Positions 44,676 through 63,171 of a DNA stretch of 64,000 nucleotides are shown here, one piece after another; within the stretch, counting starts at the first letter, position 1, and each line of letters starts with the position of its first letter. This DNA is from Candidatus Nomurabacteria bacterium. Its GTDB lineage: Bacteria; Patescibacteriota; Minisyncoccia; Phycocordibacterales; UBA918. Under the pieces are notes generated by a model that worked only from the letters and a program-made list of their open reading frames with translations, ran no database searches and had not been told where the DNA came from. A program made the translations under genes and the position numbers. The DNA is taken from assembly GCA_020632095.1 (NCBI GenBank), contig JACKGF010000001.1, forward strand, positions 733,366 to 797,365, in the 5' to 3' direction.

Positions 44676-45029
44676 ATATTTTTAATTAATCTATTTTACT
44701 CTCTATTATTAGGGGTGTGGAAGTGTGCAAAAGTTGAAAGTATGGTGTGTTTTAAAGTCCTCTCACCCAGGGTCTGATGTAAATAACTGGGGGTTGGTTT
44801 GGGGTAGTTGAGGATAGAGCTGGGGATAGGATTTTTGATAATATTAATTTGTTGATAAGTCATCGTGAGAAGGTTGGTTTTGGACAGCTTATCCTAAGTT
44901 GTATACAAAATTACTAACAAGGTTTTGGTTACTAATCCACAAACTATACATAGAATATGTGGATACATCATAACAAAAATCTTGGTAAAAAACTTCCGTC
45001 TAGACGGAAGTTTTTTACCAAGATTTTTG
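44676..45029. promoter_or_regulatory. oriC segment between dnaA and dnaN: DnaA boxes, G-tract region and a 54-bp perfect palindrome
   Basis: DnaA-box-like 9-mers TTATCCTAA (44889-44897), TAATCCACA (44933-44941), TGTGGATAC (44958-44966). Palindrome aaaaatcttggtaaaaaacttccgtc-ta-gacggaagttttttaccaagattttt (44975-45028) abuts the dnaA stop. Confidence 0.6.
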
Positions 45030-46460: not shown

Positions 46461-46622
46461 TTTGCATTATACTCGTGCTAGAAAAACTGTAAATATTTTC
46501 CCTCTAAATTTGGAATATTGAAACACTTTTTGGAAATAAAAAAATGCAACTGTGAACAAACTGTGGATAACTTTAAGGCTGCTTTTAAAACATCACTTGC
46601 CTATTGAAATATTTATTTATTC
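46461..46622. promoter_or_regulatory. oriC / dnaA promoter region with a perfect DnaA box
   Basis: TGTGGATAA at 46563-46571, plus the partial box tgtgaacaa just upstream. AT-rich. Confidence 0.55.
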
Positions 46623-47906: not shown

Positions 47907-47927
47907 TTTTTTATGGGCTTAAATAAA

Positions 47928-47960
47928 ATACCAACACTAGGATAAGTGTTGGTATTTTTA
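47928..47960. terminator. Bidirectional terminator between yidC and the secretion-cluster genes
   Basis: ataccaacact-aggataa-gtgttggtat followed by tttt. Confidence 0.6.
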
Positions 47961-47974
47961 AATAAAACTTAGGG

Positions 47975-48754
47975 TTACTTATATTTGGTGCAGGAGACAA
48001 TCCCGTTGTACTCACGAGCCTCTGCTTCTCCTCCAGCTCTTTGACAAGCTTTCATAGCGGCAGTACAGTCGTATGTATTATTTCCAACAGGGTCAGTTCC
48101 TGTAAGGAGACAATCGAATGTACTCGGTCGTTTTTTAGCTGCTCGTACAATACAGGTGCCTAGTTGATCGCTGCCGGGTGGTGGTGGAGTATATTCTCCT
48201 TGATAACAAGCTGCTTCAGGATTTGGTGAAAATGGGTTGTAGTTAGAAGGGCATCTGCCAGGCACAACATTTTCACAAATATTTTTTGCTTCTGCCGCAT
48301 CTCTAATAATACCGGATCTCAAAGGCATAAATTCATCTCCTAAGGGTAGCGAAACAGGGCTACTGGTAGTTATAACACGTGGCGAGCTTGGTATTGGGAT
48401 CGGGTCAAAGGTTACGTTAACATTATTTATGTCTGGATTGATGACAGTTATTATGATTACAGCCGCTAGGATTACCAATAACCCTAGTACAGCACCTTGA
48501 ATATCTTTCTTAGCAGACCCTTTGTCGGTAACAACATCAGACATCATCCACTTAACTCCAGCAATTACTATTTTAATTACCGCCAGGAGAGCCGCAATAC
48601 TGATTGAGAGAGCGTACAGAGCGTTCATATACGCGTCAAATCCCGAGTTAGGATTTACCCCAGGGATACCCACCAAAGGAGTATAACCAGCAGCAAAAAT
48701 TAAGGAAGGGGCGGCTGCTAGAATAAAAACGATTATTGTAATGATTTTTTTCAT
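47975..48754 (-). CDS. VirB2/TrbC-like pilin with a C-terminal cysteine-rich extension
   Basis: Signal peptide MKKIITIIVFILAAAPSLIFA, then two hydrophobic helices separated by a short charged loop (ALYALSISIAALLAVIKIVIAGVKWMM / SDVVTDKGSAKKDIQG / AVLGLLVILAAVIIITVI), the TrbC/VirB2 fold. Then ~120 aa with 10 Cys and PPPP. Confidence 0.45.
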   Translation of the reverse strand: MKKIITIIVFILAAAPSLIFAAGYTPLVGIPGVNPNSGFDAYMNALYALSISIAALLAVIKIVIAGVKWMMSDVVTDKGSAKKDIQGAVLGLLVILAAVIIITVINPDINNVNVTFDPIPIPSSPRVITTSSPVSLPLGDEFMPLRSGIIRDAAEAKNICENVVPGRCPSNYNPFSPNPEAACYQGEYTPPPPGSDQLGTCIVRAAKKRPSTFDCLLTGTDPVGNNTYDCTAAMKACQRAGGEAEAREYNGIVSCTKYK

Positions 48755-48764
48755 GATAATTAAG

Positions 48765-49973
48765 TTACTCAGTTTCTGGTAAAGGTTGTAATCGCTCAAA
48801 CATCCAGAGGTTTTGGTTGTTTTTGTTTACAAAGTAAATATTTACATCATCGTGACCAAACTGTAGGTTGGTTATGTCCAAAGACTGCCCACTTTCTGAT
48901 TGGGTGTTTGACAAGGAAGAAACCCCTTGTTCAGTCATTTTCGATTCCCAGAGGTTATCAGATAAATTAACCTCACCACTATACCAAGTGTCCGGAGTTT
49001 CTCTGTTGTAGGTGTTTGGTGTTTCAGCACATACCACTAGAGAAGAAGTGTTTTCACTAAAGGCACATTTTTCAGGAATAACAGTAATAGGAAATTCAAC
49101 GTAATCATTATATTCATGAAGGTAGAGATATGTTTGGTATCTTTCCTTGTCTTGTCTACTAAACACGACCCCGCTCTCATTTCCTTCAGCGGAAAGACCA
49201 AAACCATCAATTGGCAGACGACTAACCTTTCCTCCTTTTATCTCATATAAAAACCCTTCTAGTTTACTGCTAGCTTTCGGGTAGGCGAAGTGAGTATCCT
49301 TTTCTGTTTTTCCCCAGTCAATCACTGCTTCACGGAAAGGGATTGTAAATAAGTCTTTAGAGGTTTGTTTTACTGGGTCAAATGACTTACCGATAACCGA
49401 TCGGTCAGTTTTAACAGCATACAAAAAAGTGTTGTCAGTAGTAGCTTTAAAGCTGATAATTGGTTCAGTTATAGTGTAGACACTAGAGTCGCTTGAAGAG
49501 GCCGAGTCAAGTTTTTTGATGTTGTATTCACTACTAAAACCGCTACCGGACTGAATCATTACGTATTCACCATCTAAAGTAATGCTACCTTTTTGGCTGC
49601 TTGGGAAGGTGGTAGCTGATACTCTCTCTTCTTCCCCACTAGTTAGGTTAATAGAAAAAACGTGTCCCGTACCAGCTTCGATATAGTAGACAACAGGGGT
49701 GGAAGAAGCGTTTTTCATTACTTCACGGTAACCAATAATTGGTTTGGTAGTGAGTTGACGAAGTCTTTTAGAGGTAGAAACATTCACTGTTGGTTCATTG
49801 TCTAATGTAGGTTCTTCATTAATGATTGATGTGTCAGTAGTGTCGCCAATTGATAGGTCACCAAAAACCTCGTCAACATTCTTAGGTGTGCCAAAAAATA
49901 AAACCCATATCCAGATAGCGACTAGGATAATTATTAGTACTACTCCAATGACGATAAATACTGTGCGTTTCAT
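48765..49973 (-). CDS. Hypothetical membrane-anchored secreted protein (putative secretion-system component)
   Basis: N-terminal TM (VFIVIGVVLIIILVAIWIWVLF). Ser/Thr-rich, predicted beta-rich ectodomain. Confidence 0.35.
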   Translation of the reverse strand: MKRTVFIVIGVVLIIILVAIWIWVLFFGTPKNVDEVFGDLSIGDTTDTSIINEEPTLDNEPTVNVSTSKRLRQLTTKPIIGYREVMKNASSTPVVYYIEAGTGHVFSINLTSGEEERVSATTFPSSQKGSITLDGEYVMIQSGSGFSSEYNIKKLDSASSSDSSVYTITEPIISFKATTDNTFLYAVKTDRSVIGKSFDPVKQTSKDLFTIPFREAVIDWGKTEKDTHFAYPKASSKLEGFLYEIKGGKVSRLPIDGFGLSAEGNESGVVFSRQDKERYQTYLYLHEYNDYVEFPITVIPEKCAFSENTSSLVVCAETPNTYNRETPDTWYSGEVNLSDNLWESKMTEQGVSSLSNTQSESGQSLDITNLQFGHDDVNIYFVNKNNQNLWMFERLQPLPETE

Positions 49974-49977
49974 AATA

Positions 49978-50943
49978 CTAGAAGTTTATTAGAATATTAC
50001 TCTGTGCCCCTTGTAAAATTTGTTTGGTGTCTCGAACATGAAATTGAACGCTTGATTGTCCGAAGGTTCCTGTTCTCTGTAGAGTGACTTCATACGGGTT
50101 CCCTCCAAAATCAGTAGATTTATTACCATTAACTTTCCATTCTTTAATATCTGGATTGTTGTAGACCCGAGAATCAAGGTTGTATGGTTCAGCGCGCACG
50201 GTCACACTATTACCGATTAGAGATAAGTTTTTAGCGATTGGTTTTTGGCTGATACCGAATAGAGAGCTAACTTCATAAAAATGTACTTCCGGTGCAACAG
50301 AAGGAATACTGACCGCCCTTTTTGCTAAAACCACCCCTCCAGGTTCGGTTACTTGTAGGTAAAGTGAACTATAGTCGCCGATTGGGGTGGTAAAAGAGAT
50401 TTGATTTCGACCCCTAATTGGCCCACCTTCAAGAACTTGGTTGTTTAGTCTCCAAGTGTAAACAAGGTCAGAATCCCTAAATCCACTATCGCTCACCAAC
50501 GCAGTAGCGTTAACAATACTACCAATACTTGGTAGTGAACGGCCGAGATAAAAGTCTGGGGTTCTGGTTTGAGGTTCGATGATTATGTCTAAGTAAATAG
50601 GATTGATGGTATTTTGTAGAATCACTCTAGAACCCTGAGGTGTATTTAAGACAACTTTAATATTTTGAGTCTTACCAGCTTCTCCTGCTATTATTTTTAC
50701 TTCTCGTTGATTTTCCGCTTCTTCAATAACTTGATCATCTAACAGCCAAGTAATTTTAGATCCGTAAGTGCTTCCTTGATAGTCTTTGAGGGTGGCTGTG
50801 ACTTCTTCACCAGGTCTTGGATATTCTGGTTTAGTTTCGATGGTTGACTCAGGGTTGGTAAGTGAATTTGTGTCCAATTGAGCTAGCGCTGGGGAGGCGC
50901 TTAAGCTGACTATGGTTATTAAAAATATTATTAGTGTCCTCAT
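49978..50943 (-). CDS. Hypothetical secreted protein with repeated beta (Ig-like) domains
   Basis: Signal peptide MRTLIIFLITIVSLSASPALA. Internal repeat ...ITW/YTW...L(D/N)(D/N)QV(I/L)E... Confidence 0.35.
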   Translation of the reverse strand: MRTLIIFLITIVSLSASPALAQLDTNSLTNPESTIETKPEYPRPGEEVTATLKDYQGSTYGSKITWLLDDQVIEEAENQREVKIIAGEAGKTQNIKVVLNTPQGSRVILQNTINPIYLDIIIEPQTRTPDFYLGRSLPSIGSIVNATALVSDSGFRDSDLVYTWRLNNQVLEGGPIRGRNQISFTTPIGDYSSLYLQVTEPGGVVLAKRAVSIPSVAPEVHFYEVSSLFGISQKPIAKNLSLIGNSVTVRAEPYNLDSRVYNNPDIKEWKVNGNKSTDFGGNPYEVTLQRTGTFGQSSVQFHVRDTKQILQGAQSNILINF

Positions 50944-51034
50944 ACCATAATCATACCAGACCATAAGACACAAGAGCCCAGTTTAGTGCGTTTGTTTGGG
51001 ATATCTCCAAACACCATAAATTAATTATCCAAAT

Positions 51035-51967
51035 TTATTTTGGTCGTAACCAAATAATCATAGTCCAAATCATAAACCAAGGAAGTAAGTTTAGGACTGG
51101 TGTAAAGTATCCAAAAAAACATAGTATAAATACAAAAATCTTAATACCAGAGCTTTTACCTGAAATCGGTTCAAAACCATTTAGTTTGTATATGAGATAA
51201 ATAATTAAAAGCACCGCTATGCCGAATATAAATATTATTAACTCAGTTACCATAAAAAGATTAATAGGGTCAAGGACTGATACATTGATTCCAAATACAG
51301 CTTCCGAAATCTTTCCTGCCACTTCAAGTAGACGACTGGCGGCATAGTGAATACCTTTATATAAAAAATTACTGTTAGGGTTTGGAGTAACAATTTTTTT
51401 AATTGAGTCAAGAGCGCCAGCCAGAGCGAAAAAAACAATATTTAACAAAGCAAAAGGTAATTGAAATAGAAACCAGGAGGGTATTGCCCACGACCAAATA
51501 CTACCAGTCACAGTGGTTGCACGACCCCGCATAAGAAGCGTGGCTGAGGTACCCTTTATTGATAATTTACCAGACTTAAGTTTTTTAGGGGTGACTATTG
51601 GTTGGGTTGAATAGGTTACATTGGCTTTTCTGGTTGTTTCCTCAGAGCGATTTATTTGCTGTACAGGTTTATAGGGGTTATTTTTAGGGTCTTCTATAGA
51701 TGAGGGTTGTAAACCTTGTTTTGCGTAAGAGGCTTGGAAATTCTCATGGGTAGGGGTAATAGAGCTGGTGGGTTGTTGTTTGGTTGGTGAACCAGGCGTA
51801 TTTGAAGATCGGGTGGTTTCCGATCTAACGTTTCTTACCTCTTGTCCGCTTGTTGCACTAGAAGAATAAGCTAGGGTCGGGCGAGTTCCTGGTCCGTATT
51901 TAGGGTCGTTAACCGCTTTTGGGTATCGCTCACTATATCGCTCATCTTTTTTTTGCGGAACCGCCAT
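51035..51967 (-). CDS. Hypothetical polytopic membrane protein with a disordered N-terminus
   Basis: ~150 aa S/T/P/Q-rich N-terminus, then four or more TM helices. Confidence 0.35.
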   Translation of the reverse strand: MAVPQKKDERYSERYPKAVNDPKYGPGTRPTLAYSSSATSGQEVRNVRSETTRSSNTPGSPTKQQPTSSITPTHENFQASYAKQGLQPSSIEDPKNNPYKPVQQINRSEETTRKANVTYSTQPIVTPKKLKSGKLSIKGTSATLLMRGRATTVTGSIWSWAIPSWFLFQLPFALLNIVFFALAGALDSIKKIVTPNPNSNFLYKGIHYAASRLLEVAGKISEAVFGINVSVLDPINLFMVTELIIFIFGIAVLLIIYLIYKLNGFEPISGKSSGIKIFVFILCFFGYFTPVLNLLPWFMIWTMIIWLRPK

Positions 51968-51981
51968 ATACTAAAAGTATA

Positions 51982-53784
51982 CTACATCCGTGAAGCTTGT
52001 AACTCTTCTCGGGCTTTTCTGATTTGGAGAATTTGTGATGGGTCGGAAGTGATGATTTGTTCTTCAGTATAAGAAGCGATTATTTTTATTGCGACGTGTT
52101 TAAGGCCGGCAAAAAATATACCCTCTCCTACATTGGATTCAAGTAGCAAAAACTTTTCTTCATCAGTTAAATTAAAGGTTTTTTGGATGTTGTCGATAGC
52201 TGTTGGAGATTGTTTCATTAAGAGCTGAATTGATGAGTTGGTAATCATTGGTACTCCGTAAGGTGAACGAAGGAAATCGTCCACGTCTTGAGTGATGGTG
52301 GCTATACCTAGGTAATACTTTCGTCCTCGTTTTGCTAGACTAAACAAGAAAGAGGCGGTGTCTTCAGATTTCATCATCCACCAAGCTTCATCAATCACCA
52401 TTAAGCGCTTAACCATTCTTCGTCTGATTGATCCCCAGATGAAGTTAGTGATGATATACATGGCGATAGTTTTGAGCTCATCTTCCATGTCACGTAGGGA
52501 GAAAACCACGAATTTTTGATTAATGTCGACATTAGTGGCATGGTTCATGAAACCAGACCAGGTTCCAGCGGTGTATTTTTGGAGTCTAGTTATAAGTGAA
52601 GAACTACCATCCATACCAGCTAACACCATTTCAAAGTCAGTAAGTAATGGTGGTTCTAGGTTAGAGAAATTTGCATCACCGGTGATGTCTTTTAAAGCGT
52701 AGGTTTCTTGGATAGCAATATCAATCAAAGTTTCTTCTTCAGCAGTTAGGCCACCCAGCATTAGTCTGAATAAACCTACCAACTCAATAATGTGGGTACG
52801 GAGGACATCGCGGGGGTCCTCATCAGCGCTTGGTGTGGGAAGGTCAAAAGGATTTATGTGGTGATTAGACGATAAAGAAATGTTGAAAAAACGTCCACCA
52901 GTGGCTTCGGCTAAGTATTCATATTCTCGCTCTGGGTCGATTACAATCACTTCAGTACCAAACATTAAAGAGCGTAGAATCTCAAGTTTTAAGCCAAATG
53001 ACTTCCCTGCTCCAGAGGTGGCAAAGGTAACGGAGTTGTAATTTGTTAGACTGTAGCGGTCGAATAGTACTAGTGAAGAATTGTGTCGATTGACACCATA
53101 AAGAATTCCTGAATCCGAGGTTAAGTCGAAAGAAGTGAAAGGAAAAAAGCTTGAGAGGGGTTCAGAGTTGAACTTGCTGTGAACCATGAGTTCATCATTA
53201 GATAGCGGTAAAATACTTTTGAAGCCTGGTTCTTGTTGAAATAAGGCTGGCTTCATTGCTACTAAACGGGCATCAAGAATTCCACGAATATCATTTTCAA
53301 CCTGGTTAATTTCAGTGTCGGTTTCTCCATAGATGGTTAGGTAGAATCCTACATCAAATAACTTTTCCTCGGCTTGTTGTAGTTTGTCGCGCAGATCTTC
53401 AAGGTTTCGGTAAGCGGCTTCAAGTTGTGGGTCGCGCACCTCCCCTTTTTCCGCTTTGATATTAATTTGGCTTTGCACCTCAGCGACTTTTTTTTGAAAT
53501 TTCTTTAAAGTTTCAGCCGTGTCAACGGGATGGATAAAAATTGATACGTCAAGTTCTTTAGCTAGGTTTAAAACCGGCTCCAGCCAACCGTCGTTCAGGT
53601 ATCTTGGGTAAGAAACAGCATAATAAACTCTAGCATTTACTCCGCTAACATTAATACTTCTAGGACTCACATTAATAGCTGATGGTGCAATCACATCAGT
53701 TAAAGTGAGGAGTTGATCTTTAATCACATTAGAAGGGTCTTCACCTTGGTTTTTCTTGGGTTGTAGTAAATCTGCTAGTGACAT
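51982..53784 (-). CDS. virB4: VirB4/TrbE/CagE-family type IV secretion ATPase, C-terminal ATPase part
   Basis: Walker A TSGAGKSF, Walker B MVIDEAWWMM (DEAW), and GIATITQDVDDF (ATQ motif). Confidence 0.75.
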   Translation of the reverse strand: MSLADLLQPKKNQGEDPSNVIKDQLLTLTDVIAPSAINVSPRSINVSGVNARVYYAVSYPRYLNDGWLEPVLNLAKELDVSIFIHPVDTAETLKKFQKKVAEVQSQINIKAEKGEVRDPQLEAAYRNLEDLRDKLQQAEEKLFDVGFYLTIYGETDTEINQVENDIRGILDARLVAMKPALFQQEPGFKSILPLSNDELMVHSKFNSEPLSSFFPFTSFDLTSDSGILYGVNRHNSSLVLFDRYSLTNYNSVTFATSGAGKSFGLKLEILRSLMFGTEVIVIDPEREYEYLAEATGGRFFNISLSSNHHINPFDLPTPSADEDPRDVLRTHIIELVGLFRLMLGGLTAEEETLIDIAIQETYALKDITGDANFSNLEPPLLTDFEMVLAGMDGSSSLITRLQKYTAGTWSGFMNHATNVDINQKFVVFSLRDMEDELKTIAMYIITNFIWGSIRRRMVKRLMVIDEAWWMMKSEDTASFLFSLAKRGRKYYLGIATITQDVDDFLRSPYGVPMITNSSIQLLMKQSPTAIDNIQKTFNLTDEEKFLLLESNVGEGIFFAGLKHVAIKIIASYTEEQIITSDPSQILQIRKAREELQASRM

Positions 53785-53793
53785 AACTATTTA

Positions 53794-54435
53794 TTATCTA
53801 TTATCAACTATTGGAGCGCTCCCAGTCATATCGGCTGGATTATATAAGTGGTAAAACAGTTCGACCAAATCATCTTTTCCTAAAGAGATAGTTCTTACTC
53901 CTATCCGGGCTAATCCTTCTGATACCATGTCAACTCTTTGTTCAAGCTGAATCCGGTGTTCCTCGAACTGGAGATCATTTTGTGAAGATGATTGTTTTTG
54001 GGATTGAGAAAACATACTGGTGATTCCGCGAGTAATATTTAGTTTGGTTGGAGAGTAAGGAACAACTATAAAAAAGTTTTTACTCATAACATCAACATCT
54101 CTAGTGAATGAGCTGATAAATTCCATGTATTCCCGAAGTTGAATACGCATTAAATCATTATCTTGTTTTACCTCGAGACTTTGGAGAAGTTCTAAATAGG
54201 GTTCAATATTTAATTTTCTAGATTGAATATAGATTTGTAAAGAAAAATCTATAGTATTAAGAAATTGCTGAAATTGCATCAAAATTGCTTTTTGCTCATC
54301 TAATGATTTTAAAGCAAAGTTAATTGAAGAAGCCAAAAGCAACATACACATTTGACCGTTCTTTTGGATTATGACATCGTCACGAATATCTTTAATAGAG
54401 ACGAAATCTTGAGTGGCAGCTTGAGCTTTTGGCAT
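53794..54435 (-). CDS. virB4: VirB4 N-terminal domain encoded as a separate ORF
   Basis: VSIKDIRDDVIIQKNGQMCMLL...EQKAILMQFQQFLNTIDFSLQIYIQSRKLN matches the N-terminal domain pattern of Gram-positive-type VirB4 (PrgJ/TcpF-like). Same frame as the downstream ATPase ORF, separated by TAA TAA. Confidence 0.55.
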   Translation of the reverse strand: MPKAQAATQDFVSIKDIRDDVIIQKNGQMCMLLLASSINFALKSLDEQKAILMQFQQFLNTIDFSLQIYIQSRKLNIEPYLELLQSLEVKQDNDLMRIQLREYMEFISSFTRDVDVMSKNFFIVVPYSPTKLNITRGITSMFSQSQKQSSSQNDLQFEEHRIQLEQRVDMVSEGLARIGVRTISLGKDDLVELFYHLYNPADMTGSAPIVDNR

Positions 54436-54436
54436 A

Positions 54437-54865
54437 TTATTCCTTTTTTTGTAAGGCTTGTAATTCTAGTTTTTTAGCTAGTGAAGCGATGTTATTTTTA
54501 GGTCGTGCTGGATTTATTAAAGAGGGGTCAGTGCCTGTACGGGTTGAATTTGGTTGACTTGGGGCTGAGGTTTTGTAGACAGTATCAGTTTTTTGACGCC
54601 ATAAGTACAGCCTTTGACCTCTTATATAGTTGTAGATAGCTTCTAGAAAAAAAGAAAAAGGTCGGTTGTTGACTGGGTAAAATGCCAGAGCCCCTGCCAG
54701 TAGAGCTAGCGGAATACCTAGAAAAATAAAAAGAAACAGGGGTAGCGTAAAAAACATTACGACGGCCATACCAACTCCCCCTCCAAGATAAAGGAACTGA
54801 CGCCAAGTAAGAGGGCCAAAAATTTTATCTTCGATATCTATGAATTGAGGAACTTCAAAACGCAT
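54437..54865 (-). CDS. PrgI/VirB3-like small membrane protein
   Basis: FEVPQFIDIEDKIFGPLTWRQFLYLGGG then two TM helices. Located immediately upstream of VirB4, as PrgI is. Confidence 0.5.
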   Translation of the reverse strand: MRFEVPQFIDIEDKIFGPLTWRQFLYLGGGVGMAVVMFFTLPLFLFIFLGIPLALLAGALAFYPVNNRPFSFFLEAIYNYIRGQRLYLWRQKTDTVYKTSAPSQPNSTRTGTDPSLINPARPKNNIASLAKKLELQALQKKE

Positions 54866-54918
54866 ACACCACCATTATACATGGTGGTGGGGAAAAAGAT
54901 CGTAATTTGTTCAGTTGC

Positions 54919-55443
54919 TTACTGACCCCAACTCGGGGCTGAGGCTTCTGGTTTAGTTCGTCCTTCATTTAAGATAGCTGATTGGGTTGAGGTGTAGGTA
55001 GGGATGTGGCTTTGAGCCTGTTGCAGTTCCACATCATTAGCCATAGTGCGAACATGGGGGATGTTCGGCAGATTAGAAAGTGAAGCCTCTGCTTCAGCTA
55101 TATCTAAAGCCATGGCGGCATCCTCAGAGGAATTATATATTTCTGCTTGAGTGGTTAGTATCTCCAGCGCATTATTTATTTCTGTCGAAACCACGGTAGA
55201 TATTTCTGTAGATAGTCCCAAGTTTTGACTGAGAATTGAAGGGAGTTCGACTGGTTTTGACAAATCTAAGATCATATCACCAACTACGAGAATAAATTTG
55301 TTGTAGTTAGTATCATCAGTCAAGTTGTACTTTTCAGCAATTTTCCACAGGGCTTCCCCACTCTCAGGGGAAGCGTACAAAAATTTATTAGTTTCAGAAG
55401 CAACTTCGTAAGCAGCGTTGCGTTGTTGATTAGTGATAGACAT
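54919..55443 (-). CDS. Hypothetical soluble protein within the secretion cluster
   Basis: 174 aa, no TM, no recognisable motifs. Confidence 0.3.
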   Translation of the reverse strand: MSITNQQRNAAYEVASETNKFLYASPESGEALWKIAEKYNLTDDTNYNKFILVVGDMILDLSKPVELPSILSQNLGLSTEISTVVSTEINNALEILTTQAEIYNSSEDAAMALDIAEAEASLSNLPNIPHVRTMANDVELQQAQSHIPTYTSTQSAILNEGRTKPEASAPSWGQ

Positions 55444-55458
55444 AGTTTAAATTGCGAC

Positions 55459-57756
55459 TTAAGGAATTGGTCTTCCGTATTGATCAAGTAGTCCAGAGCC
55501 TGGAGTAGGAGCCGTGTCCTCAGGGTTGTTCCAGTTTAGTCGGCCATGGGCGCTCTTTAGGTAGTTTTGAGCGGAAGTGATGTTTGGATTGGCTGGGCCA
55601 TTGTAATTCTTTATCTTTGTCTTCAATTCTTCACGATCGTCCGCACTTAGAGTGTTGTTTCCGTAGATTGCTTCTAACACGTTACCGTTTATGTACGGTA
55701 AGGCATTATCACTTAACAATGCATCACGTGAAAGCTGGGCAATATCAATAGCTTTTTTAGGTTTGTTAGGTGCTGTGGTAAATAACTCAGAAACCTTCGC
55801 TGAATCATTTGCAGTAGATTTTTGTAGGTTACTACGCTCAGTAAGTTGTGCCATTTTTTGTCCATCTGTGAACTTATCACTCTTTTGCAGATCATCCATT
55901 TGCTTCTTGGTAAAGAGGTGGGCATTTTCTTTAATAAAGTTATCACCCAAAGTCTCCATTTGCTTAAGGGAGAGCTTGGTTAATTCCTCATTCCGGTTCT
56001 TACCATTACTTGTTAGTGAGGCCTCGATAGCTTTCTGACGAGCGTCTAGAAGTTCAGCTTTTTGATCTTGTGTCAACCCATCACTATCCATCATTTTATC
56101 GAAATCAGATGACTTAATATTTCCGATAATCTTTTCAAACTGTTCTGGTTGTTGACTCATCATCTCTTCAAGTTGAGTAGCTGAGTAACCGGCAACTGTT
56201 TGTTGCATAGTGGCGATTGTTTTCTCTTCAGCCTCTTCAGCCCTCTTTAGGGTGTCGGCATCAGTAAGGCTGCTCTTATCTACTGTTTGGCCATTATGAA
56301 GTACCTGACCGTTCTTCTTACGTTCTTCGGCCGCGATGCCAGCTTCTATAGCCACGTTGTTTCTCTGTCTGGTGTCAATTATAGAACGCTTCTTGTTTTC
56401 CTCGGCAATGGTATTACTCAAGCCGAACTTAGCTTCCTTAAGACTTTTTGCCTTATCTCGAACAGCGTCATCCATTCCAACTCGACTGCCTACCCACCGA
56501 ACCGCACCATTATTAGATCGTTGCATCCTGTTAAGACCCTTCTCGAGACTTGATCCAACTTTGTAAGACAATCTTCTACCAGCCAATCCTCCTCCATATG
56601 CTACTGGAGCGGCAACTGTTCTAGCCGTGGCTCTGGTGGTCGCAATAGCTCCCCGCTTTAAACCTTGTTGAGCTTTGCTTTTTATACTATTACCAATTCT
56701 TAAGGCCGCACCAGCGCCATCGGCGCCTAGTTTGTTGGCTACTACCACCGATGCAATAAGGAAAATTGACGATAGGATAAAGGGAGGGATTGTGCTTTCA
56801 AAAGTACTACTAATCTGGCTACCACTACCAGCAAGAACGGCTCGGAAGTCCTTGATACTACCCATTGATCCACCAGTACCGAAAAAGTTTTGAATAATCA
56901 TGGTAGAAAAGTAGACAAGTAATATGTATACCGGGGCAAAAAATGACTTGCCTAAAAAACCTTTCCAGTAAGTGGAGGTAACACTTTGCATTTGTGGGAA
57001 AACCCAACCAAGAAACATTAAGGGAGACAAGACCATATACAGACATAGTGCAGCGTAACGTATCATCAACATTAAACCGCCTGCAGCAAACACAAAAATA
57101 GCGACCATGTATAAGAGAGCTGTACCAAAAATGTAACCGTAAAGAGTGCCATCACTCATATTCGGAGGCAAGCCATATGAACCGCCTCCCCCAAAGAGGG
57201 TGGTGATTCCAAAGTTACTCATTAAAGTGGTAGATACTTCCACTAATCCATTATTTACAACAAAGCCACCCAGAGCAATCTGTGAAGCTAGAGAGTTTGA
57301 TATATCTACAATAAATTTAGTAATATACAGACTAAAGTTTACTAACAGTGCGGCGAGGATTAGGTTGATTAGCCAGCGTTTGGTACTAGAGTCGTCACTG
57401 TTGAGAATCATCTTAAATCCGATATAAATCAAGCCAAAGATAAAAGTTAGATTAAAGATGTCTCTTACGTTTACCCAGAGTTTATCAACCACAACCCCTA
57501 CTCCCGTATTTAGGAACTGAAATCCAAATCCAATCACAAATGTGTTGATTCCTGCGTCTAAAATCATTCCTGCTAGTCCAACAAACAAACCTAAGACATT
57601 GTTTACCAACGCCCATAAAGTGTCTTGGAAGAAACCAGCCGACACGGTTGAAGGAGACAACAGAAAGAAAGGTATGACTAGTAGGGCGGTTGGTAGATAT
57701 TTCTTTAAAAGGCTCATAATTTCATTCACATTTATTATCTCAAAATAGTTTGCCAT
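55459..57756 (-). CDS. VirB6/TrbL-like polytopic membrane protein with a long C-terminal coiled-coil/charged tail
   Basis: Signal/TM N-terminus, ~7 TM helices with Gly-rich loops (GGGGSYGLP), then ~380 aa K/E/Q-rich helical tail. Confidence 0.45.
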   Translation of the reverse strand: MANYFEIINVNEIMSLLKKYLPTALLVIPFFLLSPSTVSAGFFQDTLWALVNNVLGLFVGLAGMILDAGINTFVIGFGFQFLNTGVGVVVDKLWVNVRDIFNLTFIFGLIYIGFKMILNSDDSSTKRWLINLILAALLVNFSLYITKFIVDISNSLASQIALGGFVVNNGLVEVSTTLMSNFGITTLFGGGGSYGLPPNMSDGTLYGYIFGTALLYMVAIFVFAAGGLMLMIRYAALCLYMVLSPLMFLGWVFPQMQSVTSTYWKGFLGKSFFAPVYILLVYFSTMIIQNFFGTGGSMGSIKDFRAVLAGSGSQISSTFESTIPPFILSSIFLIASVVVANKLGADGAGAALRIGNSIKSKAQQGLKRGAIATTRATARTVAAPVAYGGGLAGRRLSYKVGSSLEKGLNRMQRSNNGAVRWVGSRVGMDDAVRDKAKSLKEAKFGLSNTIAEENKKRSIIDTRQRNNVAIEAGIAAEERKKNGQVLHNGQTVDKSSLTDADTLKRAEEAEEKTIATMQQTVAGYSATQLEEMMSQQPEQFEKIIGNIKSSDFDKMMDSDGLTQDQKAELLDARQKAIEASLTSNGKNRNEELTKLSLKQMETLGDNFIKENAHLFTKKQMDDLQKSDKFTDGQKMAQLTERSNLQKSTANDSAKVSELFTTAPNKPKKAIDIAQLSRDALLSDNALPYINGNVLEAIYGNNTLSADDREELKTKIKNYNGPANPNITSAQNYLKSAHGRLNWNNPEDTAPTPGSGLLDQYGRPIP

Positions 57757-59138
57757 TCTGATTCAGTAGCTTTGTATTGGCTGGCTGGATACAAGGTTAG
57801 TTTGGTGTATTCAGAAATGGCGTCATTTTGTGCATTTACATCACCAGCAGCCACGGCAGCATCAAATCTAGCTATTATTAAATTGAGAGCACTTACGTTT
57901 GTGGTGGTTTTATTGATTACTTCTAATGCATCATTGTAGGCTGCTGCTGCCTGAGCCGCTCTGTCTGGTCGGACCAAAGGATTAACAGAATAGGATTGAA
58001 GAGCAGGGGCATAATTATTGGCTAGGTTTCTGTAATTTGTCTCCGTTACAAGGGCGTCTGACATTAGCTTTCTTGATTCAGCCGGGCTTAGTCCAGGGGT
58101 AGCTTGTCCAACGGCACTAGTGTAAGAACCACCACTATAACCTGAGTAGGTGTAACCTGTACCGCTAGAGAGACCTAGTAGTCCAGATGCTCCAGTTAAG
58201 GCCTTGTTAGCTATTTGGCCTATTAAAGCAGAAATAACCTCGTTGATTTCATCTGCTGAGATTAGACTTTGGCGACCAGAATCTAGGTTGAAAGACAAAG
58301 CTTCTTCTATAATTTTGCCTGGCTTGGTGATAAAACACTCCTCTCTGTCTGCGCCAGCGCCATGAACTATTTCACAAATCTCTCCTGATAGAAAACCATC
58401 GCCAAAATCAAGTAAAGAATATTGTTCACCTTTGGCATTGATAACCCTAGCTTGGCCTCCTATTTGACCAGACAAGATTGCCCCGTATGGTGTGTAGGTT
58501 TGCGGGGTGGCGGTGATGGTGAACCAGTCAGCCCAGCCTCCTTGAGAGAAGTCTCCAGCAATAAATTGTTCAAAATTACCTACAATACCACTTAAGCTAC
58601 AAGTTGGAGCCGGTTGATCAGTTCGTTCTCGGTTGTACTGGAGAGCTACTGATATCTGCACATCAAGTCTAAAGGGTGCACAGATAAAAGAGCCGAAAGA
58701 ACCCAACTCACTAATATATGTCCCGATCGCTTCATCAGCTGCCTGTAGTAAAAATCCACTCAAATCCTGAACAAAAGCTGGGCTACCCTGAAAACCAGAG
58801 TTAATCCAGTCAACAAGACTTTGTACCATTGAGGAAACCACCCTTTTAGCTACAGCCCAAGCGATGCCATCAAGAATGTTTTCTTTCATCCAATTATTTC
58901 CAGTCATAGTAGCTGTAATGCTGTCAAAATACTTAGAAGCAGTAGTGGCCGCATTAATAATTCCTAGTTGAACATTGTTTAGCCATTGAGTTGGTTCGAG
59001 CGCTCCTCCAGTCATTCCTCCAGCCTCTACGGTACTGATGTGGTTGTACGGCTGAGGGATATAAGTGGCAGAAAAACCAAAAATAACAAAAATTATTGCT
59101 ATTAAACCCTTTTTAAGAATTGAAAAAAATGTATCCAT
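57735..59138 (-). CDS. Hypothetical membrane-anchored secreted protein
   Basis: N-terminal TM. Gly/Ser/Tyr-rich segment (GTGYTYSGYSGGSYTSAVG). No family recognised. Confidence 0.3.
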   Translation of the reverse strand: MDTFFSILKKGLIAIIFVIFGFSATYIPQPYNHISTVEAGGMTGGALEPTQWLNNVQLGIINAATTASKYFDSITATMTGNNWMKENILDGIAWAVAKRVVSSMVQSLVDWINSGFQGSPAFVQDLSGFLLQAADEAIGTYISELGSFGSFICAPFRLDVQISVALQYNRERTDQPAPTCSLSGIVGNFEQFIAGDFSQGGWADWFTITATPQTYTPYGAILSGQIGGQARVINAKGEQYSLLDFGDGFLSGEICEIVHGAGADREECFITKPGKIIEEALSFNLDSGRQSLISADEINEVISALIGQIANKALTGASGLLGLSSGTGYTYSGYSGGSYTSAVGQATPGLSPAESRKLMSDALVTETNYRNLANNYAPALQSYSVNPLVRPDRAAQAAAAYNDALEVINKTTTNVSALNLIIARFDAAVAAGDVNAQNDAISEYTKLTLYPASQYKATESEWQTILR

Positions 59139-59148
59139 AAGCTAATAA

Positions 59149-60036
59149 TTAATTTTGGTAATTAGGACTAAACATAATAAATAAAACAGCCGGGTCATCA
59201 GTGGTAAAAAGACTAGATTTTGGTTCGAGAGCTAGGTACAAATTTTGCAAAGCATAGCCAAGACCCTCAGCGTCATCCTGGTATCTTTTCAAGCGAAGCA
59301 AGGTGAAGGCCGGGTCATCCAAAACCTTTGTCATAGCCTCAATATCCATATGGACAGCGTGAAATGTGTTGATTATATCTAAGTGTTCTTTAACCAAAAA
59401 AGCAGGTACAGGGGTGTTTAGAAAGTCATCACGATTACGTCGGTAGCCCTCGGTGAGAGATTTAAGTCCAGTCAGCCCATTGCTATCGTCACTTTTTAGG
59501 AGTTCGTCAAGAATTGCCAACTCATTTTTAACATCAGGCACATTATTTCTTAAAAGTGTGCCAGCCATAGTATTAGCATAATTAACTATGTCCTGATCAT
59601 TCCATTCTTTAAGGACGATGATGTCTGGGGTATCATAAAGGTCGTGGGCAGTTTCTTTACTTAGAATATCGACTGTATCGCTAATTACTTGTTCCTGACT
59701 GCGTCCGAACGGGCCATAACCCTTTGCTCTAATGATATCCTCCATAAAGTTTATTCCTAATTGACCAGTTAGAGTTTCAGGGGGAACATAGGTAGAGTCT
59801 TGTTTCTCTAATATTACTGGCTTAGTAGTTATAAACTCGTCTCTCCAGTCTTCAATACCATTTCCATCATCATCACTTACTTCGATGGCTACTCGAGGGG
59901 AGGGCTTCGCTGCCAGAACGGCTGCCTGATGAGAAATTTTAGGTGCATTAAAATTACTTAATACATAAGAGCCAGCAACTAAAGCAAAACCGATGATTGC
60001 TGAGCCGACTATTTTTGGGTTGATATTTCCCTCCAT
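59149..60036 (-). CDS. Hypothetical membrane-anchored protein, first gene of the secretion cluster
   Basis: N-terminal TM (IVGSAIIGFALVAGSYVL). Acidic DDDGNGIEDWRDEF segment. Confidence 0.3.
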   Translation of the reverse strand: MEGNINPKIVGSAIIGFALVAGSYVLSNFNAPKISHQAAVLAAKPSPRVAIEVSDDDGNGIEDWRDEFITTKPVILEKQDSTYVPPETLTGQLGINFMEDIIRAKGYGPFGRSQEQVISDTVDILSKETAHDLYDTPDIIVLKEWNDQDIVNYANTMAGTLLRNNVPDVKNELAILDELLKSDDSNGLTGLKSLTEGYRRNRDDFLNTPVPAFLVKEHLDIINTFHAVHMDIEAMTKVLDDPAFTLLRLKRYQDDAEGLGYALQNLYLALEPKSSLFTTDDPAVLFIMFSPNYQN

Positions 60037-60131
60037 ACATTATTAGTATACCAGTAGTAACTACTAATAATTCGTAAATTTGCCCACAAGTGTGCATTGA
60101 GTTGGGTATAAACTGTTAATTATGGCGTGAA

Positions 60132-60941
60132 TTAAATTGTTTTTACTGTTAGTAATGAGTTAACAACGTTAATCCACGTATCTAAAGGGATATCCTCTGC
60201 TCTGACATCTAGCGGTAGTGCAAGTCTGGTTAGAATCTCACTTACTGTTTCTCTAGGAAACTCTTTTGCTAAATTACCGACTAGTTGTTTTCTTTTTTGG
60301 GCGAACCCGAGGTGAAGAATATGAAAAAACTGTTTCGAGGTAAAATTACTGAAAATATCGCGGTTAATTTTATTCACCGCGACAATGGCGGAGTCGATTT
60401 TTGGAGGTGGGGTGAAATGACTTTTACTGACGGTACATATATATGTCGGTTCGCCAAAAACTTTTACTGATAGTGACAGTAGCGACTCTTTTTTATCCCG
60501 AGCGATACGTTCGGCTACTTCCTTTTGGATGAGAAAGACAAGAGTGTTGGGTTGGCATTTGGAATCAAGTAAAGTACGAAAAAGAAAGCCTGATAAATAG
60601 TACGGAATATTTGACACCACTTTGAAGGTTTGATTGGTCAGTCCAAAATCAGCCAGGTTTAGAGAGCGGGCGTCGTGGTGGTGTAGGGTGAGTTGTCCGC
60701 TAGCAATTTCGTTAGAAAATGATTCCTCGAGTGATGTAACCGCCCGCGCATCCGCTTCAATCGCTATCACCCTCGCGTCGCGCTTCAAAATCTCCTTAGT
60801 TAGAGCGCCAGTTCCGGGTCCAATCTCAAGTACTGTCTCCCCCGCTTGGAGGTTGGCCGCGTCACACATTTTAATCGGTACGTAATCACTATTCAAAAAA
60901 TTCTGCCCCAGTGATTTTTTATGTGCAAATTTTTCCTGCAT
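60132..60941 (-). CDS. rsmA: 16S rRNA (adenine1518/1519-N6)-dimethyltransferase
   Basis: SLGQNFL motif, LEIGPGTGALT SAM-binding motif, NIPY motif. Confidence 0.85.
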   Translation of the reverse strand: MQEKFAHKKSLGQNFLNSDYVPIKMCDAANLQAGETVLEIGPGTGALTKEILKRDARVIAIEADARAVTSLEESFSNEIASGQLTLHHHDARSLNLADFGLTNQTFKVVSNIPYYLSGFLFRTLLDSKCQPNTLVFLIQKEVAERIARDKKESLLSLSVKVFGEPTYICTVSKSHFTPPPKIDSAIVAVNKINRDIFSNFTSKQFFHILHLGFAQKRKQLVGNLAKEFPRETVSEILTRLALPLDVRAEDIPLDTWINVVNSLLTVKTI

Positions 60942-60963
60942 TTAGACAGATTAGGGTAGCTAC

Positions 60964-61042
60964 GCAAATTATGCAACTAATCTAGTGTGCGCTCCGGGCC
61001 GCTAGGCCGAGTCTTACACATTAGATTAGTTACGTAATTTGC
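60964..61042. promoter_or_regulatory. Long imperfect palindrome (26-nt arms, 22/26 complementary) with a GC-rich centre, upstream of rsmA
   Basis: gcaaattatgcaactaatctagtgtg ... cgctccgggccgctaggccgagtctta ... cacattagattagttacgtaatttgc. Confidence 0.4.
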
Positions 61043-61105
61043 TTTTATGAATAAATACTCCTCTTGCTGCGGGAGCGTGCGAGTGATGTTTTTTAACCTA
61101 AAAAA

Positions 61106-61189
61106 TCAACCTGACTCAGTCAGTAGCGAATCATTCTCAGTAAAAATTTCATGAGCGAGGATGACGAGTCACTGACTGGATCAGGTTGA
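61106..61189. promoter_or_regulatory. Second long inverted repeat (19-nt arms, 17/19 complementary, 46-nt spacer) in the same intergenic region
   Basis: tcaacctgactcagtcagt ... actgactggatcaggttga. Confidence 0.4.
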
Positions 61190-61203
61190 CTGTCGGTAGT
61201 TAT

Positions 61204-63171
61204 CTAATCCAAATAGATCGTAGTTTCGTAGCCAGACTTCCCTCCTGATTCGCTGGGGTTGGCACTCTCAACGTGTTTGGTGTCGATGTCGTTGAGGAAT
61301 GATGAAGGAACGTTGACTCTTTGGCTGCCGAAGATAGTGCGCATGTGGGCATAGGTCAGGAAAATTTTCTTTTCGGCGCGAGTAAGAGCAACGTAAAATA
61401 GTCGACGCTCTTCTTCTTGATCGGTCTTACCATCATCGAGTCGTTCGTGTGGGAAAAGTCCTTCCTCTAAACCAGTAATAAATACGTAAGCGAACTCTAG
61501 TCCTTTGGCGGCGTGGATAGTCATCAAGCGAACAGCATCTTGTTCTTCTTTTTCTTTGAGTTCATCTTGATCGCTTTGGAGAGCCGCACTTTCTAATAGT
61601 TGTTCAACCGCTTCGCTTGGTTCGACTTCGTCATAACGAGTAGCCAGGGTTACTAGCTCACGGAGGTTTTCTAATCTTTCTAGCGCTTCTTCAGTTCGTT
61701 CGTCTTTTAATTCATCCTCAATACCACTACGCTTCATGATGAATTTAATGGTGTCAGATAAGGGTTTCTCGGTAGCTGTTTTGGCTATATCTGACATGAT
61801 AACGTCAAACTTTTGTACCTTTTCTAAAGCACCCTTGTTTAAGTCGGCTCTATTTCCTTCGATAACTTTAAGCATGGTAACTTTCCCGATACCACGCGCT
61901 GGGGTATTGATTACTCTAGTTAAGTCAGCGTTACTGCCAGGGTTTAGAGCGAGACGTAGATAGGAAAGGACATCTTTTACTTCTTTACGTTCAAAGAATT
62001 TGGTGCCAAGTAGTTGGTAAGGCACTTCAAAATTTAAAAAAGCTTCTTCTAGTGAGCGTGACTGGAAGTTGGTGCGATACAGAACAGCAATTGAAGAGGG
62101 GTCAGCACCATCGGCCACCAAATTTTTAGCAGTCATCGCTACGTACTCAGCTTCGTCATAACCAGTCATGCCAGCGTAGAGGGTCAACTTCTCTCCTTTA
62201 TGATTATTAGTGAAAACATTTTTCTCTACCCGGTTTTGATTTTTCTTGATGATATCGTTCGAGGCAGCGATGATGGTTTGGGTGGAACGATAATTTTCTT
62301 CTAAGAGAATCGTAGTGGCACGCGGAAAATGTCTTTCGAATTGCAGGACGTTTTTTATATCAGCTCCCCGCCAAGAATAAATATTTTGGTCAATGTCCCC
62401 TACCACACATATATTGTGAGCTTCACCGGCTAGTAGTTCGGTAATAGTAAATTGCACGCGGTTGGTGTCTTGATATTCGTCGACGTGAATATACTTGTAA
62501 CGTTCTTGAAGTTTGGTCCGCACCGGGGGGTGTTCTTTTAAAAGGAAAAGTGTTTTAACGAGCAGGTCGTCAAAATCAAGGGCTTGTTCCGCTTTAAGAA
62601 TTTCTTCGTACTTATCCCAGACTTCGGCTGCTACTTGTTCTGGGAAAGAATTGGCTGAATCCTTAAAAGCGAGCAGAGTGATAGCGTCCCCTTTAGCTCT
62701 TGAAATGATGGAGAGAATTTTTCTAGGTTCAAATTCTTTAGGATTATAGCCAGCTTTTTCAATTGATTGTTTAACAGCTTTTTGGCTATCACTCCGGTCG
62801 TAGATGGTGAAGTGGCGACGCAGTCCGAGCGTGTCGTGGAACTCACGCAACAAACGAACGCCGAGGGAGTGGAACGTGGTAACGGTTGGTTGACTGTCTA
62901 TAACCGCGCGATCAGAAGGAAAGTATTTTTGAGTCAGTGTGGTTACACGTTCACGCATTTCTTTAGCTGCTTTGTTGGTGAAGGTAACAGCTAATATATT
63001 GTTGGGAGCTACGCCTTGGTGAATCAGGTGAACAATCCGGTGAGTAATAACTCGAGTTTTTCCAGAGCCAGCGCCCGCTAGGATCATTAAGGGGCCGTCG
63101 GTATGTAACACAGCTTGTTTTTGGGGTTCGTTTAATCCTTCTAAATACGGGGTTTCAGACATATGTGCCAC
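61204..63171 (-). CDS. pcrA: ATP-dependent DNA helicase PcrA/UvrD (short form)
   Basis: Motif I AGAGSGKTRVITHRI, motif II DEYQDTN, TFHSLG, and VGDIDQNIYSWRGA. Confidence 0.85.
   Translation of the reverse strand: MAHMSETPYLEGLNEPQKQAVLHTDGPLMILAGAGSGKTRVITHRIVHLIHQGVAPNNILAVTFTNKAAKEMRERVTTLTQKYFPSDRAVIDSQPTVTTFHSLGVRLLREFHDTLGLRRHFTIYDRSDSQKAVKQSIEKAGYNPKEFEPRKILSIISRAKGDAITLLAFKDSANSFPEQVAAEVWDKYEEILKAEQALDFDDLLVKTLFLLKEHPPVRTKLQERYKYIHVDEYQDTNRVQFTITELLAGEAHNICVVGDIDQNIYSWRGADIKNVLQFERHFPRATTILLEENYRSTQTIIAASNDIIKKNQNRVEKNVFTNNHKGEKLTLYAGMTGYDEAEYVAMTAKNLVADGADPSSIAVLYRTNFQSRSLEEAFLNFEVPYQLLGTKFFERKEVKDVLSYLRLALNPGSNADLTRVINTPARGIGKVTMLKVIEGNRADLNKGALEKVQKFDVIMSDIAKTATEKPLSDTIKFIMKRSGIEDELKDERTEEALERLENLRELVTLATRYDEVEPSEAVEQLLESAALQSDQDELKEKEEQDAVRLMTIHAAKGLEFAYVFITGLEEGLFPHERLDDGKTDQEEERRLFYVALTRAEKKIFLTYAHMRTIFGSQRVNVPSSFLNDIDTKHVESANPSESGGKSGYETTIYLD

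Follow-up and report, generated by a model that had tools for sequence, protein, structure and literature searches.

A type IV secretion-like gene cluster beside the replication origin of a Candidatus Nomurabacteria bacterium: gene assignments and comparison with described systems

Introduction

Chromosomal, non-conjugative type IV secretion systems (T4SSs) were described between 2023 and 2025 as typical of Patescibacteria (candidate phyla radiation, CPR). Wang et al. (2023, Cell; PMC10633639) reported that Southlakia epibionticum possesses a T4SS with pilins and without a relaxase or coupling protein, and that the T4SS and the pilins are essential for its epibiotic growth. Quinonero-Coronel et al. 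(2025, Microb Genom; PMC12102498) surveyed 3035 Patescibacteria genomes. In that survey, the VirB4 proteins of Patescibacteria form a monophyletic clade inside MPF_FATA, a class of conjugation machinery; genes for TrsD, PrgI, VirB6 and VirB2-like proteins are found near virB4; and relaxases were detected in just 103 genomes. In Paceibacteria, dnaA, dnaN, rnpA, ksgA and rpmH were reported near virB4. In a FEMS review of 2025 (PMC12857230), they are given as a new type of T4SS. In this study, we analyzed an eleven-gene cluster (positions 47975-60036, minus strand) in a stretch of 64,000 nucleotides from a Candidatus Nomurabacteria bacterium (assembly GCA_020632095.1, contig JACKGF010000001.1, positions 733,366 to 797,365; hereafter, the window). 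The cluster is almost certainly a representative of the Patescibacteria T4SS described above.

Few molecular clues exist to how ultrasmall, biosynthetically poor bacteria exploit their hosts. The T4SS of Patescibacteria is among them, and it is essential in the sole species tested. The cluster described here is a clean and complete example from Paceibacteria, a class with almost no cultured members.

Results

Layout of the gene cluster

The cluster consists of eleven co-directional open reading frames (ORFs), tightly packed with intergenic gaps from -22 to about 90 nt. The first-pass annotation, which was made from the sequence of the window, had described these minus-strand genes as starting immediately after a terminator of yidC, and the ORFs and a hairpin at 47925-47958 are located accordingly. 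Its tally of four recognized and six unknown genes, however, gives ten and not eleven. The genes, numbered from the start of the operon, are as follows.

g1: 59149-60036, minus strand; 295 aa; opens the operon; transmembrane (TM) helix near the N-terminus, at residues 8-27; orphan
g2: 57735-59138, minus strand; 467 aa; N-terminal TM helix and conserved Cys-containing core; orphan
g3: 55459-57756, minus strand; 765 aa; polytopic membrane protein, putative extended member of the VirB6/TrbL family
g4: 54919-55443, minus strand; 174 aa; soluble, fast-evolving; orphan
g5: 54437-54865, minus strand; 142 aa; PrgI/VirB3-like protein with two TM segments
g6: 53794-54435, minus strand; 213 aa; soluble TrsD-like protein, the detached N-terminal module of VirB4
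g7: 51982-53784, minus strand; 600 aa; VirB4 ATPase without the first approximately 165 residues, which g6 supplies
g8: 51035-51967, minus strand; 310 aa; disordered N-terminal half and three to four TM segments; orphan
g9: 49978-50973 (start probably at 50943), minus strand; 321-331 aa; secreted all-beta protein with Ig-like domain(s); orphan
g10: 48765-49973, minus strand; 402 aa; TM anchor and modelled seven-bladed beta-propeller; orphan
g11: 47975-48799 (start probably at 48754), minus strand; 259-274 aa; putative VirB2-like pilin core and a tail of 144 aa

The left flank of the cluster contains dnaN, dnaA, rpmH, rnpA and yidC, and the right flank contains ksgA, pcrA and an ABC ATPase gene. 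For g1-g4 and g6-g11, the public protein collection was searched and contains identical sequences (tags H6784_03810-03860). The public names are all hypothetical, except for that of g7, which is "conjugal transfer protein TraC".

Position of the cluster in the genome

We compared 80 related loci from Paceibacteria metagenome-assembled genomes titled Kaiser-, Nomura-, Campbell-, Adler- and Taylorbacteria (some are mislabelled as Saccharibacteria). All eleven genes have equivalents, by sequence or by position, in up to 80 of these loci. The core of VirB3-, VirB4- and VirB6-like proteins, the putative pilin and the surface-exposed accessory proteins are present and conserved. About 60 Paceibacteria species share the block pcrA-ksgA-(g1 to g11)-yidC-rnpA-rpmH-dnaA-dnaN in synteny. 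In the synteny comparison, which had been suggested by the first-pass annotation, the block was intact in every contig that was long enough, and only the order of g10 and g11 varied.

The identity across the compared loci was 67-89% for VirB4 and 51-91% for DnaA. In the more distant half of the loci (L030-L080), the median identity was 69% for VirB4, 57% for DnaA, 53% for PcrA, 42% for YidC and 37% for DnaN; no other protein of the neighborhood is as well conserved as VirB4 in these distant relatives, in which the extracytoplasmic proteins of the cluster show only 23-41% identity. The GC content of the cluster (0.39-0.42) is equal to that of the flanks.

When the window ORFs of at least 120 aa were inspected by eye, with no profile search, no type IV coupling protein (T4CP, VirD4), relaxase or integrase was seen. 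None was found either in the 10 kb past the right end of the window, as read in the near-identical contig L084. Because the block is syntenic in about 60 species and these genes are locally absent, the cluster is judged to be part of the core genome and not a mobile element. The first-pass annotation had likewise seen neither VirD4 nor a relaxase in the window and had placed the cluster in the core origin region rather than on an island. The fixed flanks and the uniform GC content bear out this placement, and the adjoining 10 kb, where such genes might have stood, hold none.

DnaA-box-like sites are located at 44850, 44933, 44958 and 46562, and the GC skew changes its sign near 44 kb. The origin is therefore placed 1.4-3 kb from the cluster. 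The T4SS operon, ksgA and pcrA (47975-63171, minus strand) lie to the right of dnaA/oriC (44700-46620) and are transcribed towards the origin; thus, the cluster is head-on to the rightward replication fork. This orientation is kept in all related loci, and it goes unmentioned in the published idea of a gene-dosage benefit near the origin.

VirB4, its N-terminal module and PrgI

The g7 protein matched the NCBIfam model conju_CD1110 with 364.7 bits (cut-off, 325), in which residues 3-564 correspond to model positions 163-732 of 752. This CD1110 family, which is of the MPF_FATA type, is the best curated model for g7. Pfam P-loop_TraG (99.7 bits) and AAA_10 were also matched. The Walker A motif GAGKS at residue 258 and the Walker B motif DEAW at residue 465 had both been reported by the first-pass annotation; the literal ATQ motif that it also listed is absent, and the sequence at residues 495-499 is ATITQ. 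Among the best 120 of more than 8000 matches, relatives of g7 are 85-92% identical to it, and the named ones belong to Patescibacteria. The best curated model and these matches are both compatible with a place of g7 in the Patescibacteria VirB4 clade.

In NCBIfam searches, residues 8-175 of g6 were aligned with positions 1-167 of the CD1110-VirB4 model, and residues 5-157 with positions 101-264 of a Mycoplasma VirB4 model (E 4.9e-10); a weak TrsD match was also obtained. The precomputed Pfam assignment of g6 is PF26593 (TraC-like), and the profile comparison by hhalign matched it with the protein that follows PrgI in the Bacillus cereus plasmid pBFI_1 (96.6%). Since g6 and g7 are collinear on one CD1110-family model (positions 1-167 and 163-732, respectively), and likewise on the Mycoplasma VirB4 model, these alignments indicate that VirB4 is split into two polypeptides, g6 being the N-terminal module and g7 the remainder. 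All 80 loci contain g6, and in each of them it is an ORF of its own, of approximately 210-230 aa.

The g5 protein matched Pfam PrgI (PF12666) with 45.2 bits (cut-off, 27), and its gene is present in 78 of the 80 loci. It had been annotated as a PrgI-like protein directly upstream of VirB4. The family is correct, but the gene order is g5-g6-g7 and the TrsD-like g6 lies between PrgI and VirB4. When profile searches were applied to all products, as had been recommended, g5 and g7 scored above the cut-offs, whereas g3 and g11 did not.

The VirB6-like protein g3

The g3 protein possesses approximately seven TM segments (residues 20-345), followed by a hydrophilic C-terminal tail of 380 aa, which is poorly conserved. 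No direct match was found in profile searches of Pfam, NCBIfam and PDB. The profile of 29 g3 orthologs matched a "type IV secretion system protein" of B. cereus pBFI_1 (95.8% probability, E 7e-9), with residues 209-292 of g3 aligned to residues 153-236. The aligned stretch of the pBFI_1 protein is its match to Pfam TrbL (PF04610; 37.8 bits; cut-off, 25.9). Weaker hhalign matches, to TrsL (45%) and PrgH (29%), were obtained with the same region of g3. A tblastn search with the N-terminal half of g3 against 72,556 plasmids gave matches only at E 0.2-0.3, one of which led to pBFI_1. Because the ortholog profile aligns to the TrbL/VirB6 domain of pBFI_1, g3 is regarded as a probable "extended VirB6". 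Thus, the VirB6-like polytopic protein of the first-pass annotation has gained transitive profile support, and its tail of about 380 aa is indeed present and hydrophilic. A coiled coil or a repeat array was considered for this tail and neither was established; the signal for internal repeats was only slightly above the null maximum (46 and 38, respectively).

The pilin-like protein g11

The g11 protein has a signal peptide and two TM helices, which is the topology of VirB2. The score with Pfam T4SS_pilin (PF18895) was 23.3 bits, under the cut-off of 26.6, and a weak match to the NCBIfam pilin-like family Mbov_0395 was found. The hidden Markov model (HMM) of the g11 orthologs matched two small pBFI_1 proteins whose genes lie upstream of that for PrgI (E 6e-6 and 2e-4). 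The last gene of the cluster had been assigned to a VirB2/TrbC-like pilin, and the topology and the weak family matches are consistent with this, whereas the Pfam score falls short.

The core of g11 was matched in 60 of 61 orthologs with 43-66% identity. In contrast, the C-terminal tail of 144 aa (window positions 47978-48409), which contains eight Cys residues, was matched in none of the 61. Among the orthologs, the tail is 6 to 310 aa long, and Cys-containing tails almost always have an even number of Cys residues. Even among species in which DnaA is approximately 85-90% identical, no similarity was detectable between the tails. Such a pattern would be expected if the tail were a surface domain that evolves fast and contains disulfide bonds. 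In many relatives (loci L011-L078, e.g., L016, L018 and L020), g10 and g11 have exchanged places, and the two genes are always adjacent.

The six lineage-specific products

Six products are specific to the lineage: g1, g2, g9 and g10 have extracytoplasmic domains, g8 is polytopic, and g4 is cytoplasmic. Direct searches of Pfam and NCBIfam gave nothing for g1, g2, g4, g8 and g10 (and g3), and none of the six matched any T4SS protein of pCF10, pSK41 or pBFI_1 by HMM or hhalign. The all-versus-all hhalign comparison of the eleven families (for example, g8 with the pilin and g6 with g7) revealed no internal paralogs; its best pair, g9 and g11 (32%), was treated as noise from signal peptides and TM segments. 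The first-pass annotation had described its unknown products as signal-peptide or TM-anchored proteins without a recognizable family. The anchoring does not apply to g4 and g6, which have neither a signal peptide nor a TM segment, and holds for the others. The lack of a family holds for g1, g2, g4, g8, g9 and g10 and not for g6, the VirB4 N-terminal module.

The g1 and g2 proteins: The g1 gene was found in 33 of the 80 loci, always first after ksgA, and its ectodomain is probably helical. No PDB-profile match and no hhalign match to Gram-positive T4SS proteins was obtained for g1. The g2 protein consists of a TM helix, a Cys-containing core, a Gly/Ser/Tyr-rich linker and a C-terminal three-helix bundle. 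In the ortholog alignments, the core carries the motif WINSGFxGxPAFVxDL and invariant Cys residues. PDB, Pfam and NCBIfam profiles were not matched by g2, and tblastn against the 72,556 plasmids gave nothing. In the AlphaFold2 model of g2 (mean predicted local distance difference test score, pLDDT, 62.9), the core has low confidence and residues 350-467 score above 95; Foldseek returned nothing below E 0.05 with this model. The homologs of g2 (n = 657) are all named hypothetical, and none carries a Pfam domain except for one match to PF09603.

The g4 and g8 proteins: tblastn matches to g4 were obtained in just 13 of the 80 loci, and an ORF of 150-290 aa is always present between g3 and g5. Thus, g4 is conserved only by position. 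The g8 protein has a disordered N-terminal half rich in Ser, Thr, Pro and Gln, and a C-terminal module of three to four TM segments. Most of its positional orthologs (n = 55) have two to four hydrophobic segments, which in closer relatives are C-terminal, behind an N-terminal extension of up to approximately 240 aa. No hhalign match of g8 to PrgF, PrgG, TrsB, TrsF or the pilin was found, and a match to the P60 protein of pBFI_1 (18 bits) was judged to be compositional.

The g9 and g10 proteins: The g9 protein has a signal peptide ending in ALA-Q, and its gene is present in 69 of the 80 loci. With the ortholog profile of g9, the best match was an Ig-like domain, that of Hoc from phage T4 (E 3e-4), and a surface protein of the LPXTG type was matched at E 0.0075; a weak match to Pfam BiPBP_C was also observed. 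The g10 protein was modelled by AlphaFold2 with a mean pLDDT of 90.4 and a predicted TM-score of 0.82, as an N-terminal TM anchor, a linker of approximately 40 aa and a propeller ectodomain. Foldseek against PDB matched the model only with generic seven-bladed propellers (E ~1e-9, TM-score ~0.5, 10% identity), including G-beta, a trilobed protease propeller and oligogalacturonate lyase. The model thus predicts, with high confidence, that g10 is a membrane-anchored seven-bladed beta-propeller. Its gene is present in 64 of the 80 loci, always beside the pilin gene.

Transcription signals and other features of the window

Two features border the operon.

47925-47958, both strands: hairpin of a bidirectional intrinsic terminator, in the spacer where yidC and g11 converge
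60037-60131, minus strand: ksgA-g1 spacer of 95 nt; possible promoter region of the operon, by sequence reading

The hairpin at 47925-47958 has a perfect 14-bp stem, a 6-nt loop and U-runs on both strands, with a dG of -18.2 kcal/mol (z -6.7) for the minus strand and -17.7 (z -4.05) for the plus strand. In the ksgA-g1 spacer, TGgTATACT can be read 8 nt ahead of the ATG of g1, and this spacer may contain the operon promoter. A promoter scan performed no better than with shuffled sequence, and an Rfam scan of the window detected no RNA family within the cluster. The 53-nt spacer between g4 and g5 contains a GC-rich hairpin of 9 bp (54867-54889; dG -15.2 kcal/mol, z about -2), of which the 3' arm, GGUGGUG, stops one base short of the AUG of g5. 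This hairpin could mask the ribosome-binding site or serve as an internal attenuator.

Outside the cluster, a PilB/GspE-type ATPase of 580 aa is encoded at 33063-34805, approximately 13 kb from the cluster. Since this ATPase is present, the genome also appears to possess type IV pilus machinery or machinery like that of type II secretion. Transposase-like ORFs at 19057-20043 and 35325-36110 are IS5-like and IS30-like by eye. The GC content is 0.42-0.46 around 18-28 kb and approximately 0.39 elsewhere. Two ORFs for ABC-transporter ATPases (20307-22148 and 63339-63956) end in almost identical motifs (AQGFRP and LQGFRP, respectively), which suggests that they are paralogs.

Discussion

The experimental literature and our sequence comparisons lead to the following view. 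The machine encoded by the cluster very probably derives from the MPF_FATA conjugation machinery of monoderm bacteria and no longer moves DNA between cells. A non-conjugative role in the interaction with a host is probable; as for the export of effectors specifically, we lean slightly against it. That this is a T4SS-like machine rather than a conjugative element had been proposed in the first-pass annotation and is consistent with every test that was run and with the literature, and its suggestion of a host-interaction organelle in a reduced epibiont also fits the published reports. In such a machine, VirB4 hexamers (g6 and g7) docked on VirB3 (g5) and VirB6 (g3) would pull the pilin from the membrane. 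The extracted pilin would be polymerized into a pilus-like conduit across the thin monoderm envelope, and the fast-evolving g1, g2, g9, g10 and pilin tail would scaffold this conduit and touch the host cell. Proteins or other molecules may then pass between the epibiont and the host, be it by export or by import.

Several points weigh against this view. The VirB6 assignment of g3 is transitive and was reached by profile-profile comparison, and the pilin assignment of g11 is weak, with a sub-threshold Pfam score. The absence of VirD4 is a local one, covering the window and 10 kb, and in the survey by Quinonero-Coronel et al. (PMC12102498) VirD4-like genes are far from virB4 in most Patescibacteria genomes. 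Neither a VirB8-like (NTF2 fold) nor a VirB1-like (cell-wall hydrolase) protein was recognized among the eleven products. Furthermore, even for Saccharibacteria, the literature describes the role of the T4SS as "completely unknown" (PMC11665869). As to the missing parts, VirB8-like and VirB1-like proteins were rare in the survey too (PMC12102498), and they are no requirement for membership of the Patescibacteria clade. A LysM-LysM-Peptidase_M23 protein is encoded approximately 4 kb past the right end of the window (L084:6409-7677), within about ten genes of virB4, with genes for a DksA/TraR-type zinc-finger protein and a ComM-like protein nearby. It is possible that this protein stands in for the absent VirB1-type hydrolase.

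The same machine might instead act as an importer, similar to ComB or Ced, through which an epibiont that cannot make nucleotides would take up host DNA, nucleotides or building blocks. The lack of a relaxase or T4CP near the cluster would fit this, and the T4SS has been proposed as a route of nucleotide acquisition, because comEC is dispensable and the T4SS essential in S. epibionticum (PMC11665869); uptake through the pilus is also suggested in the FEMS review (PMC12857230). The g7 protein does match the archaeal DNA importer CedB, but the match is weak, partial and limited to the generic P-loop (36 bits, against a cut-off of 700 bits). Moreover, no ComB- or CedA-like component was recognized in the cluster, and import has no experimental support in any Patescibacterium. 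We regard it as unlikely.

An ordinary conjugative element (an integrative and conjugative element or an integrated plasmid), with its relaxase, coupling protein and oriT just outside the window, would explain why VirB4 passes the cut-off of an NCBIfam family named for conjugative transposon ATPases and why the public name of g7 refers to conjugal transfer. However, in about 60 species the cluster is found at one and the same site, flanked by ksgA and yidC/dnaA, its composition is that of the flanks, and relaxases are rare in the Patescibacteria survey (PMC12102498). The 48 kb to the left and the 10 kb past the right end contain housekeeping genes only, without an integrase, relaxase or VirD4. 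With no VirD4 or relaxase past the right end and a conserved site, such an element is very unlikely. A decaying, functionless relic of an ancient conjugation system is exceedingly improbable: although VirB8, VirB1 and VirD4 are missing from the cluster and VirB4 occupies two ORFs, all eleven ORFs are intact, every one of the 80 loci has the split VirB4, no neighboring protein is better conserved than VirB4, and S. epibionticum requires its homologous system (PMC10633639).

Returning to the non-conjugative machine derived from MPF_FATA, a bolder extension, which we consider somewhat doubtful, is that the outer half of the T4SS was built anew in Paceibacteria, from components for which no T4SS described so far offers a counterpart, the tail being the determinant of host specificity. 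These parts may be the pilin with its hypervariable, disulfide-rich C-terminus, the propeller, the Ig-like g9 and the orphans g1 and g2. The C-terminus of VirB2-type pilins faces the exterior of the filament, as is known from the F-pilus structure and from the display of C-terminal epitopes. If this applies to g11, the tail would coat the pilus and set the host specificity, and g11 would be a pilin-adhesin fusion under diversifying selection. No discussion of the pilin tail or of the Paceibacteria-specific accessory set was found in the accessible parts of the literature on Patescibacteria T4SSs.

The gene-by-gene assignments could steer structural and genetic work on the parts that touch the host. 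Candidate guides for such work are the split VirB4, the VirB6-like protein, the propeller, the Ig-like protein, the hypervariable tail, and the difference between the fast-evolving surface parts and the conserved VirB4.

Comparison with known systems

ComB of Helicobacter and Ced of Sulfolobales are relaxase-free, T4SS-derived machines with a use other than conjugative export, and beyond the generic VirB4 P-loop no specific sequence relationship between them and the cluster was found. The Prg/Pcf system of the Enterococcus plasmid pCF10 shares with the cluster PrgI, the VirB4 protein PrgJ (174 bits with the g7 profile) and, by a weak match, the VirB6 protein PrgH. In pCF10, however, VirB4 is unsplit (796 aa), there is no pilin, and the hydrolase PrgK, the VirB8-like PrgL, the VirD4 protein PcfC, a relaxase and LPXTG adhesins are present.

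The Trs system of the Staphylococcus plasmids pGO1 and pSK41 (MPF_FATA) is similar in gene order, since TrsC (VirB3), TrsD and TrsE (a shortened VirB4) mirror g5-g6-g7. The CagC/VirB2-like TrsB precedes TrsC, and the TrbL-family TrsL is present. In contrast, pSK41 is a plasmid with VirD4 (TrsK), a relaxase, a CHAP hydrolase (TrsG), a topoisomerase and a single-stranded DNA-binding protein, none of which is found in the cluster. The closest layout that we found outside CPR is that of B. cereus pBFI_1 (L081; NZ_CP009639.1, 33365-51637), which carries two pilin-like proteins, PrgI, a TrsD-like protein, VirB4 and an extended VirB6 of 1562 aa. For three parts of the cluster, it gave the best match outside CPR, and its PrgI, TrsD-like and VirB4 genes parallel the order g5-g6-g7. 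Since pBFI_1 possesses two of them, pilin-like genes do occur in MPF_FATA systems of Firmicutes. Unlike the cluster, this system is plasmid-borne, has a large NlpC/P60 hydrolase gene beside VirB6, and is without homologs of g1, g2, g4, g8, g9 and g10. Its VirB4 sequence appears to be interrupted at a group II intron.

The T4SS of S. epibionticum (SEML1_0005-0019), as with our cluster, is chromosomal, near the origin, and without a relaxase or T4CP in the cluster. Both possess VirB4 with a separate TrsD-like protein, PrgI and an extended VirB6, and both have an exported Ig-like protein (PEGA in S. epibionticum and g9 here); VirB2-like pilins are present in S. epibionticum, and g11 is the putative one here. 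The pilins of S. epibionticum are small and number six, in tandem, and only that species has two VirB6-like proteins, a triple lysozyme as the VirB1 analogue, and an NTF2-like (VirB8-like) protein. The Paceibacteria cluster encodes a single putative pilin, of which the tail is Cys-rich, lacks genes for a hydrolase or an NTF2-like protein, and has its own accessory set of g1, g2, g4, g8 and the propeller g10. The first-pass annotation had arrived correctly and independently at a system that was already known, and the cluster adds no new kind of system; the small additions made here are the split VirB4, the beta-propeller and the hypervariable, Cys-rich tail of the pilin.

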